Source: Alphaproteobacteria bacterium
GTDB taxonomy: Bacteria; Pseudomonadota; Alphaproteobacteria; GCA-2746255
Direction of reading: 5' to 3'
Assembly (NCBI GenBank): GCA_965249135.1
Contig: OZ252220.1
Location: 1,952,001-2,016,000, forward strand
Length of the DNA: 64,000 nucleotides
The notes beneath the pieces were generated by a model that had not been told where the DNA came from, made no database searches, and saw only the letters and a program-made list of their open reading frames with translations. A program made the translations under genes and the position numbers. This document shows positions 41,426 to 42,360 of this stretch, in pieces. Numbering within the stretch: position 1 is the first letter of the stretch; each line of letters begins with the position of its first letter.

Positions 41426-42360
41426 ATGAGTGCAGATTCCCTAAAAACCCTTAAATCCGTTTTGCTATCCGGCACCATGCTTCCTTTGGTGGCGGGGGCA
41501 GGCGTTATTGCGATTGGCGTGACGCTTGGTGACACCCCTGTGCAAGCCGAGCAGCTCGCGGGCTATTACAAAAATCAGGGAACGAAGAATCCCTGTGCCG
41601 CGAAGAATCCCGATATGGCAAGGCGGGGCTGCAACCCTTGTAACCCTTGCGCGGCGAAGGGCTGTACCCCTGTGGCCCGTGCGGTCCATGCGGTGCCGCT
41701 GCAGGCCCAGAGCTTTCGGATAAGGAAGCAGACGCGCTTTATAAGAAGCTCAAGGGCAAGATGGCGAAGGCCTACAAGCAATCCGGTCTTCCCTTCGCCG
41801 CCTATTACCAGACCTGGAAACGCTTCAATACCGTCCCATACGTTTCCGCCACCCATGGCGGTCGTTATGTGAACAACTATGGGAACGCGAAGGCAGGCGC
41901 ATACAGAAAATTCGAAGAAGCTGGGAAGATGCCCAAAAGCGCCATCCTTGTGAAAGACAGCTTCACGAGCGTGGCTGCGAAAGGATGCAACCCCTATAAT
42001 CCCTGTGCGGCGAAGAACCCTTGTGCGGCGAAAGGATGCAATCCCTGCAACCCCTGCGCGGCGGAGAACCCTTGTGCGGCCAAGGGCTGCAACCCTTGCA
42101 GCCCGTGCGGTCCCTGCAACCCATGTGGGGCTACATCGAAATCTCCCATTGGTCCCCTCTTCGTCATGGAAAAGATGGGAGAAGGATTCTACCCCGCGAG
42201 CGGCGATTGGCGTTACACGATGGTCTTGCCAAACGGGCAGGTCTTTGGGACGACGAAGGGAAAGGGCTCCGACAAGGTTGAGTTCTGCATAACCTGTCAC
42301 GTAGCTGCGGAAGATTACGATCACTTGATGTTCTTGCCGGACGAATATCGGAAAAAGTAA
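41426..42360 (+). CDS. Secreted cytochrome P460-family protein with two Cys-rich NPCAAK repeat blocks (1-nt frameshift at about 41666)
   Basis: AGGAG RBS, signal peptide ending [36 protein letters not shown]...GDW.Y, C-terminal CITCH; restoring one A (TGT-AAC-CCC) joins the two ORFs. Confidence 0.8.
41585..41694 (+). repeat. NPC/GPC repeat block 1 (8 Cys after frameshift repair)
   Basis: [27 protein letters not shown][N]PCGPCGPCG. Confidence 0.85.
41974..42129 (+). repeat. NPC repeat block 2 (12 Cys) inserted within the P460 domain
   Basis: [52 protein letters not shown]. Confidence 0.9.

Follow-up and report, generated by a model that had tools for sequence, protein, structure and literature searches.

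A cytochrome P460-type haem protein of Alphaproteobacteria with Asn-Pro-Cys arrays at its N-terminus and inside its haem domain

This report concerns a gene at 41426-42360 (+) in a 64,000 nt stretch of DNA, hereafter the window, from an Alphaproteobacteria bacterium (assembly GCA_965249135.1, contig OZ252220.1, positions 1,952,001-2,016,000 of the forward strand). The gene codes for a signal or anchor peptide, an 8-Cys block of NPC and GPC units and a P460-fold domain with the haem motif CITCH, in one hairpin of which a second block with 12 Cys is set. Sequence comparison strongly supports the reading of the intact protein as an exported c-type haem protein with the P460 fold, the cross-linking lysine and the distal glutamate. 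The haem domain forms a new clade within a known family, and the arrays are a widespread mobile module that is not peculiar to the window gene and that appears to be undescribed. The parts of the gene are as follows.

41426..41548, + strand: start codon and N-terminal export signal or membrane anchor, 41 residues, hydrophobic, ending VQA/EQ, from direct reading of the sequence
41588..41694, + strand: block 1, an NPC/GPC cysteine array with 8 Cys in about 36 residues, read across the frame break
41665..41668, + strand: frameshift site, one A missing behind 41665, TGT A[A]C CCC
41695..41982, + strand: N-terminal half of the P460-fold domain, a helix and then the strand ILVKDSF, with the Lys at 41953-41955
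41983..42129, + strand: block 2, a cysteine array with 12 Cys in 49 residues at the tip of the beta-hairpin formed by the Lys strand and the Glu strand
42130..42360, + strand: C-terminal half of the P460-fold domain, with GPLFVMEKM (Glu at 42169-42171), DWRYT, the haem c motif CITCH at 42286-42300 and the stop codon at 42358-42360

Every element named in the original prediction, that is the signal peptide, the 8-Cys block, the Lys of ILVKDSF, the 12-Cys block, GPLFVMEKM and CITCH, was found again at these positions, and the 12-Cys block does lie between the VKDSF and GPLFVMEKM strands as had been proposed. An LLSxxxxP motif in the N-terminus is common to relatives of the protein and to a paralogue at 48716-49918. 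At the DNA level a 51-nt unit is repeated in tandem in block 2, in 2.6-3 copies that match at 79-84%, a tandem repetition that is far above chance.

The proposal that the domain is P460-like is favoured both by a profile search and by comparison of predicted structure. Pfam Cytochrome_P460 (PF16694) matches at 27.9/28.1 bits against a cut-off of 27, in an alignment that covers positions 69-123 of the 125 in the profile, and the same family is matched at E<=0.001 by 98 of the 101 aligned relatives. An AlphaFold2 model built on the 101-sequence alignment has a mean pLDDT of 82.5, with the domain at about 97 and its blocks at 93-98; the insert falls between the strands at residues 93-99 and 164-169, and block 2 (residues 101-160, pLDDT 44-59) is predicted to be disordered. 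When this model was compared to the PDB with Foldseek, 18 listed matches had a probability of 0.98-1.0 and all were P460 or cytochrome c'-beta, including 7EAD, 6HIU, 9HRK, 6HIH, 7S5O, 2JE2 and 6AMG, with the next rows below 0.1; the TM scores of the 18 to the target are 0.47-0.71 and 10 have E<=0.001. A profile is required to see this relationship by sequence, as a single-sequence phmmer search of PDB chains found no P460, and no NCBIfam family was assigned to the protein at E<=1e-8.

P460 and c'-beta proteins share this fold, and the c'-beta proteins of Methylococcus capsulatus (6HIH), Thermus thermophilus (7EAD) and Nitrosomonas europaea (7S5O) provide the best profile and Foldseek matches. 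In the alignment of the 101-sequence profile to PDB chains, GAVLAKDSF pairs with GAILVKLSW of the M. capsulatus P460 (McP460, 6hiu), whose Lys is residue 78 by count, and with GTVTVKELV of the N. europaea P460 (NeP460, 8gar), in which chain residue K96 is Lys70 given an offset of 26 residues. The Glu of L-F-x-M-E-K pairs in turn with Glu96 of NeP460 (chain residue 122), the Glu of its YIGLE sequence. A 2025 review of P460 and c'-beta proteins, in its Table 2, gives Lys70, Lys78 and Lys106 as cross-linking residues and Glu96 and Asp102 as the distal carboxylate needed for hydroxylamine oxidation, and for the inactive c'-beta proteins it gives Met79, Phe61 and Phe61 combined with Ala or Gly (PMC11928373). 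The Lys of VKDSF, which had been suggested as the cross-linking residue, thus aligns with Lys78 of McP460 and Lys70 of NeP460, whereas c'-beta proteins have M or F at this site in the profile alignment. Since Phe or Met takes the place of the window family's Lys in them, and Gly or Ala that of its Glu, the c'-beta proteins have neither the cross-link nor hydroxylamine oxidation, and they have no cysteine arrays.

No variation is seen at W181, C207, C210 and H211 in the 101 sequences, and conservation reaches at least 90% at K96, E168 and K169. A pattern matched 110 of the 120 nearest homologues, of which 109 have K in the lysine column; in the glutamate column 98 have E, seven R, four Q and one K, with MQK, MRK or MKK replacing MEK in P0022, P0036, P0038, P0040, P0056, P0057, P0062, P0067, P0070, P0087, P0093 and P0100. 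Not all members can therefore work like NeP460; the P460 of Nitrosomonas sp. AL212 likewise keeps the Lys without a distal carboxylate, and it is inactive. By sequence and predicted fold the window protein is nonetheless well supported as P460-type and not c'-beta-type, and because its family keeps the cross-linking Lys and the distal Glu, the intact protein should form the P460 cofactor and bind or oxidise hydroxylamine- or NO-type ligands.

The closest described counterparts are thus the P460 proteins of N. europaea (2JE2/2JE3, 8GAR) and M. capsulatus (6HIU, 9HRK), which have the same beta-sheet fold with a Foldseek probability of 1.0. As judged by alignment, the window protein resembles both in being an exported c-type haem protein with a C-terminal CXXCH and a Lys at the cross-link position, and it resembles NeP460 in having Glu at the distal carboxylate position, which is occupied by Asp102 in McP460. 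Unlike these proteins, with which identity is only 12-17%, the window family has an extra N-terminal helix and has arrays behind the signal peptide and in the Lys-Glu hairpin; its hosts are marine heterotroph-like Alphaproteobacteria and not nitrifiers or methanotrophs, and the window copy itself is frameshifted.

That frameshift lies in GGC TGT A[A]C CCC TGT within block 1. Frame 1 (from 41426) ends at a stop at 41872 and frame 2 (41647/41668-42360) holds the remainder of the gene, and no uninterrupted frame runs from the signal peptide to the haem motif in the window copy. Logan contigs from four runs, belonging to four studies, were aligned to 39400-42500 of the window. The X1 contig is near-identical and reproduces the window exactly, frameshift included, and it may be the window's own source. 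The X5 and X6 contigs, from two other studies, differ from the window by 50-51 substitutions over 3.1 kb (low depths of 4.6 and 2) and both have an extra A behind 41665 and a continuous frame. The gene is also whole in a genome of the same genus (G113, locus L143), in L001 and L002 and in the homologue P0003. Since the A is kept in two sister-strain assemblies and the gene is whole within the genus, the window copy is either a recent pseudogene or the result of an assembly error. Programmed frameshifting was considered and ruled out, the site having no slippery heptamer and the sister strains simply carrying one more A. As to the concern that block 2 might be an assembly artefact, the X1, X5 and X6 contigs, from three studies, span it in full at the same length, and a contig from the fourth study (X11, 41676-42102) crosses the junction from KDSF into the array, which shows that block 2 is real.

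The adjoining arsM gene is broken as well, being split by a perfect 14-nt tandem duplication in which TGCACCGTCGAGGG occurs twice at 40250-40277. The X5 and X6 contigs are without those 14 nt (at 40248), both genes being whole in these sister strains, and G113 has arsM whole. This break is not a homopolymer error, since it consists of a 14-nt duplication, nor is the window riddled with indels, since its three other overlapping same-strand pairs of open reading frames (ORFs) are ordinary, complete and separate genes (MreC/MreD, an ABC permease/ATPase pair and a binding-protein/beta-propeller pair). We conclude that the window strain has two recent inactivating mutations in adjacent genes, a 1-nt deletion in the P460 gene and the duplication in arsM, although the missing base at 41665 may instead be a consensus or assembly error, given that the contig reproducing it may be the window's own source. 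Elsewhere in the same genome a second DUF3179 paralogue (C1:990417-991303, +) gives a profile match in two overlapping pieces that lie in different frames, and this may be a third frameshifted gene.

Relatives of the protein are numerous. With the frame-2 piece as a query, 1109 clusters were found at E<=1e-3 (proteins of 126-403 residues); at least that many P460-family clusters carry the N-P-C module, for the most part N-terminally. In a set with one genome per species there are at least 615 pattern matches, with at least 556 genomes encoding a relative. The carriers are nearly all metagenome-assembled genomes labelled Alphaproteobacteria, Rhodospirillales, Kiloniellales, Sneathiellales or Hyphomicrobiales, to which is added the cultured Ferruginivarius sediminum; the clade is large, mostly marine and alphaproteobacterial. 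The N-terminal arrays of these relatives have 3-47 Cys. Of the best 120 of the 1109 clusters, 110 have a short hairpin of 9-10 residues and arrays (up to 47 Cys) that are N-terminal only, with N-P-C repeats inside the hairpin in the other 10 (P0003, 4, 9, 11, 21, 31, 50, 80, 84 and 118); hairpin length was settled by pattern in 106 of the 120 and the remaining 14 were judged short by eye. The in-domain insertion is therefore a rare variant of the array module.

There are also members with no array. One of these, P0086, used as a query, found 694 clusters at 50% identity, and among the 150 nearest to it 115 have no more than 5 Cys and 25 have at least 10. A quick maximum-likelihood tree was made from 71 hand-chosen domain sequences (14 with a loop insert, 43 with an N-terminal array and 14 array-less), and it places every array-bearing protein on one side of a branch with an SH-aLRT of 97. 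The loop-insert proteins fall in two groups, one of the window protein, G113 and P0003 (SH-aLRT 100) and one of 11 rows (99), and as the branch between the two groups lacks strong support, the insertion may have originated once or twice. Tandem duplication at the hairpin tip, where the Lys strand is joined to the Glu strand, best explains the origin of the hairpin array. The survey of homologues for repeat presence and copy number that the original prediction had called for shows arrays to be recurrent and their copy number to vary even within a genus, blocks 1 and 2 having 6 and 9 Cys in G113 as against 8 and 12 in the window. G113 has in addition an array-less gene of the P460 family (L143:8746-9384, -) that has no equivalent in the window, in which Arg stands for the cross-link Lys (ILVRDSF) and the hairpin has a different insert with two Cys.

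The arrays are not restricted to P460 proteins. The window genome, a single contig of 2.12 Mb with 60% GC, encodes a further array in a protein of 92 residues that consists of a signal peptide and an N-P-C array only (C1:685272-685550, -, equivalent to L080:6273-6551); its gene is flanked by DUF924 and LPG_synthase_TM genes, with a sulfite reductase cluster nearby. Used as a query this stand-alone protein found 225 clusters of 50-160 residues and 667 longer clusters, and the carriers of stand-alone arrays are labelled Alpha-, Beta- and Gammaproteobacteria, Nitrospinota and Tectimicrobiota. Precomputed Pfam assignments for the best 120 of the 667 longer clusters comprise 81 with SoxA/TsdA cytochrome c and/or CCP_MauG, 17 with P460 and one with a YHS domain, the other 21 having nothing or only low-complexity matches. 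The 81 cytochrome c array proteins are mono-haem, have arrays on one or both sides of the domain and include proteins of Marinobacter, Halomonas, Motiliproteus, Oceanisphaera, Zobellella and Gallionella. In ESM Atlas the stand-alone array matched only unnamed 'hypothetical protein' clusters, at 0.87-0.88, which is under the trust level.

A sequence logo was made from 7165 non-haem Cys in three sets of proteins (P460, stand-alone and cytochrome c). In all three architectures Asn precedes the array Cys at -2 in 63-80% of cases and Pro at -1 in 67-86%, and the residues that follow the Cys are Ala/Asn, Ala/Pro and Lys/Cys in turn. Gaps between one Cys and the next are mostly of 2, 4 or 5 residues, the two-residue (CxxC) spacing accounting for 29-53%. 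Odd and even Cys counts stand at 61:45 in P460 proteins and at 56:64 in stand-alone arrays, and since odd counts are as frequent as even ones, obligate internal disulfide pairing is unlikely. Both blocks of the window protein fit the module, having tandem Asn-Pro-Cys cores and Ala/Lys spacers in an exported protein, at a terminus or in a loop. As the module sits on other haem proteins and also occurs alone, its role is probably not specific to P460 chemistry.

Around the P460 gene the window has the following features, the last two of which lie beyond the locus itself.

38853-39470: rhodanese-domain gene, upstream of arsM
39467-40635: arsM (arsenite methyltransferase-like), broken, in two frames
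40654..41184, - strand: divergent gene for a winged-helix regulator resembling MarR/ArsR, all Pfam hits below the cut-off, conserved in L002 and G113
41255..41314: back-to-back promoter-like hexamers for both divergent genes around the palindrome CAAATATATATG (41284-41295), consensus matches only
42467..43495, + strand: DUF3179 gene, 106 nt downstream of the P460 gene
48716..49918, - strand: paralogue of 400 residues with the family's N-terminal motif and a P460-like domain, no CXXCH, Leu at the Lys site and an extra middle region
50095..50802, + strand: DUF6969 gene (E 2.2e-88), divergent from the 400-residue paralogue

The gene order is rhodanese, arsM, the MarR/ArsR-like gene (-), the P460 gene, DUF3179 and a convergent GMC oxidoreductase. 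No terminator-like site was seen between the P460 and DUF3179 genes, which are probably co-transcribed, and the pair is found in all four genomes of a small clade (the window, L001, L002 and G113). Other neighbours in the window, that is rhodanese, arsM, the MarR-like gene and the GMC oxidoreductase, have 0-2 matches in 79 loci of the wider family. The G+C content is 52-57% at 38000-44000 and 47000-51000 of the window, as against 60% for the genome.

The DUF3179 protein has an N-terminal transmembrane or signal segment and a CPLC motif, of which C134, P135 and L136 are invariant and C137 is at least 90% conserved in 24 sequences. Published tables list selenoprotein members of DUF3179 that carry UxxC/T (PMC9312934, PMC13188914). 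A model of the protein has a pLDDT of 81, and Foldseek gave no confident match with it. VIA-align places residues ~101-215 on Rieske ferredoxins with a borderline Z of up to 8.2 and an rmsd of 2.6-3.0 over 91-94 residues, and Rieske proteins take 42 of its top 43 rows. The invariant His117 and C134-P-L-C137 stand where Rieske proteins hold their cluster ligands; the site is not a canonical 2Fe-2S site, because the position of the first Rieske Cys is occupied by Trp.

The 400-residue paralogue had no Pfam match. Together with the DUF6969 gene it forms a pair, ~7 kb beyond the P460 locus, that is also present in the same-genus genome, and the DUF6969 protein has no signal peptide. Another locus of the window genome (C1:446258-448363, -, equivalent to L081:3259-5364) has a gene for an FGE-sulfatase-domain lipoprotein directly upstream of, and on the same strand as, genes for two small secreted proteins that contain NPCHPCNPCHPC and GCNPCNPC, with two GYD-domain genes next to them. 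Both FGE-like and DUF6969 genes recur beside the P460 family, each in 19 of the 79 loci and in 17 of these within two genes of the P460 gene, and MsrB, HAD, MFS and DsbA-like genes come next in a subset of the loci.

Wider associations were counted in 151 genomes of the class, one per family, with a P460 profile that also catches array-less and haem-less paralogues. The P460 family was matched in 24 of these genomes, DUF6969 in 35, the FGE-type orthologue in 15 and DUF3179 in 50. DUF3179 is present in 23 of the 24 P460-family genomes as against 27 of the 127 others, DUF6969 in 20 of the 24, and of the 15 FGE-type genomes 12 have the P460 family and 14 have DUF6969. An array ORF lies within 1.5 kb in only 6 of the 15 FGE-type loci. 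DUF6969 is not tied to arrays alone, since in genomes without the P460 family only 1-3 of 12 DUF6969 loci have an xPC-rich ORF within 4 kb.

What, then, might the arrays do? For the roughly 20 extra Cys the original prediction offered chelation of metals or metalloids, buffering of redox state or S-nitrosation, or post-translational modification, and the present evidence discards none of the three. The reading that we favour, tentatively and without claiming that it is probable, is that they are reactive thiol arms that exchange with the haem and are reset by the CxxC protein DUF3179. One N-P-C array lies behind the signal peptide and the other at the tip of the hairpin whose strands supply the Lys and the Glu; their cysteines would cycle between thiol and disulfide or S-adduct, passing electrons or NO-type equivalents to or from the neighbouring haem, and the co-transcribed periplasmic CPLC protein would reset them. 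It is suggested by the partners of the module, which are overwhelmingly redox haem domains, by the co-occurrence of thiol-active families (DUF3179 and FGE-type) with the array module and by array Cys counts that show no parity bias, and the conserved Asn-Pro before the Cys would fit a helix N-cap or turn that tunes reactivity.

A number of points weigh against this picture and against the P460 assignment on which it builds. The periplasm of aerobes is oxidising and free thiols there would need active maintenance. The Pfam score is barely above its threshold and the HMM covers the C-terminal half only, R, Q or K replaces the distal Glu in 12 of the 110 matched homologues, and the gene is broken in the window strain and so need not work there at all. 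The co-occurrence counts over the 151 genomes are uncorrected for shared ecology or ancestry, and of the 23 genomes with both DUF3179 and the P460 family, only ~5 have the two genes side by side. Nor does DUF3179 separate redox from metal handling, because UxxC, in the tables that list it for DUF3179, is found in metal-binding proteins and metal transporters too (PMC9312934 / PMC13188914).

The same observation leads to the strongest rival, in which the arrays would work in the periplasm much as metallothioneins do, binding a soft metal or metalloid, be it Cu(I), Zn/Cd, Hg or As(III), in order to sequester it or pass it on, with the haem domain and DUF3179 as redox or metal partners; we think it doubtful, but nearly as likely as the favoured reading. 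The composition of the arrays is metallothionein-like, with 22-24% Cys, hardly any aromatic residues and a complement of Lys, Ala, Asn, Pro and Gly, and their frequent CxxC spacing, predicted disorder in the apo model and variable copy number would all suit metal binding, as would the single YHS-domain fusion. In the modelled Rieske-like fold of DUF3179, His117, Cys134 and Cys137 could form a metal site, and canonical FGE is a copper enzyme. The arsM and rhodanese genes upstream in the window point the same way, and arsM is upstream in L001 and G113 also, but it is confined to the window's small clade (1 of the 79 loci, and G113) and rhodanese is in none of the 79. The conserved neighbour families of these loci include no recurrent gene for resistance to copper, mercury, zinc or arsenic, and Pfam annotation assigns no metallothionein family to the 120 listed stand-alone array proteins or to the window protein. 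Furthermore Asn-Pro is strictly kept before each Cys across phyla, which goes beyond what metal binding alone would need, and periplasmic metal sites usually rely on Met and His.

Among known metal proteins the arrays may be compared to bacterial metallothioneins of the SmtA/BmtA type, which are cytoplasmic and folded around Zn, and to the Met-rich insert of CueO, which stands beside a redox metal site in a periplasmic copper protein. All are low-complexity, Cys- or Met-rich and disordered, but bacterial metallothioneins are not known to have an N-P-C periodicity.

A purely structural role, in which the arrays are spacers or cross-linking tails that tether or polymerise periplasmic or surface proteins by intermolecular disulfides or, once modified, by aldehyde-lysine links and have no direct part in haem chemistry, seems improbable to us. 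The sole published NPC repeat found is the run of six Asn-Pro-Cys units in CdeC of Clostridioides difficile, like the arrays a feature of a cysteine-rich bacterial envelope protein, which self-assembles into ordered layers (PMC7677010). CdeC differs from the array proteins in being a Gram-positive spore-coat (exosporium) protein whose units stand in a different context, with no haem domain, and which acts by self-assembly, and the likeness is that of a common tripeptide. Arrays do lie at termini, between a membrane-proximal signal or anchor and the domain, or within loops at the surface; peptidoglycan-binding domains (PF01471, PF01476) are present in some members as well, and Pfam gives weak matches to cornifin and Mst87F, both of them structural proteins that are cross-linked. 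As against this, a stand-alone array of ~50 mature residues would tether nothing, an array set within a loop cannot serve as a spacer, and copy number varies widely even between congeners.

The proximity of FGE-type genes raises one further explanation, that the N-P-C units are sites at which Cys is enzymatically modified (to formylglycine or another oxidised form by the FGE-type enzyme, or perhaps by DUF6969) and that the modified residues are functional. There are precedents for such substrates, as the EGKCG repeats of HvfA and the bufferins are acted on by MNIO enzymes, and the arrays resemble these in that secreted proteins carry a short Cys motif in repeated form and a gene for a candidate modifying enzyme, here of FGE type, lies close to theirs; no MNIO/DUF692 gene was found among the conserved neighbour families of the 79 loci. 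We would be surprised if this explanation held for, whilst the N-P-C core is kept in three architectures as a recognition motif would be, the FGE-like and DUF6969 genes cluster and co-occur with the P460 family as counted above and the window genome's FGE-type lipoprotein gene is followed by those for two small secreted proteins, the canonical C-x-P-x-R of sulfatase-type FGE substrates is not matched (the conserved Pro is at -1, P at +2 reaches 33-49% by way of CNPC, and at +4 A, N, K, G or P prevail, with Arg outside the four commonest), the P460 gene has no FGE-type neighbour in the window's clade, few FGE-type loci have an array ORF close by, and DUF6969, without a signal peptide, cannot act on a periplasmic substrate after export.

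The original prediction knew of no described function for this architecture, and a full-text search of the literature, supplements aside, likewise found no paper on the architecture or the motif, motif strings giving unrelated matches only. Full-text searches for cytochrome P460 with cysteine-rich, for periplasmic metallothionein and for DUF6969 also gave none, and the 2025 review mentions cysteine once, for the haem motif only (PMC11928373).

Work on cytochrome P460 deals almost entirely with nitrifiers and methanotrophs, where the protein is studied as a source of N2O and NO. A clade that keeps the Lys and the Glu, with relatives in at least 556 species genomes, points to hydroxylamine or NO handling by marine heterotrophs. 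Poly-cysteine tracts are unexpected in an oxidising compartment, and a role for them in handling metals, electrons, NO or modifications would open new periplasmic thiol biology, to which the in-domain insertion adds a natural experiment in that the same array has been set beside an active site. Cultured carriers are at hand in Ferruginivarius sediminum WD2A32 (L056) and, for the cytochrome c form, in Marinobacter and Halomonas. At its widest, and this is a speculation with little probability in our view, the arrays, the P460- or SoxA/TsdA-type haem domains, DUF3179, the periplasmic FGE-type enzyme and DUF6969 would together be one undescribed periplasmic haem-thiol system, widespread in marine bacteria, in which cysteine arrays are a co-substrate of haem chemistry. 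If that were true, the arrays could take up electrons as disulfides or trap NO+ as S-nitrosothiols during the oxidation of hydroxylamine or NO, and the array within the domain would bring the co-substrate to the active-site hairpin itself.

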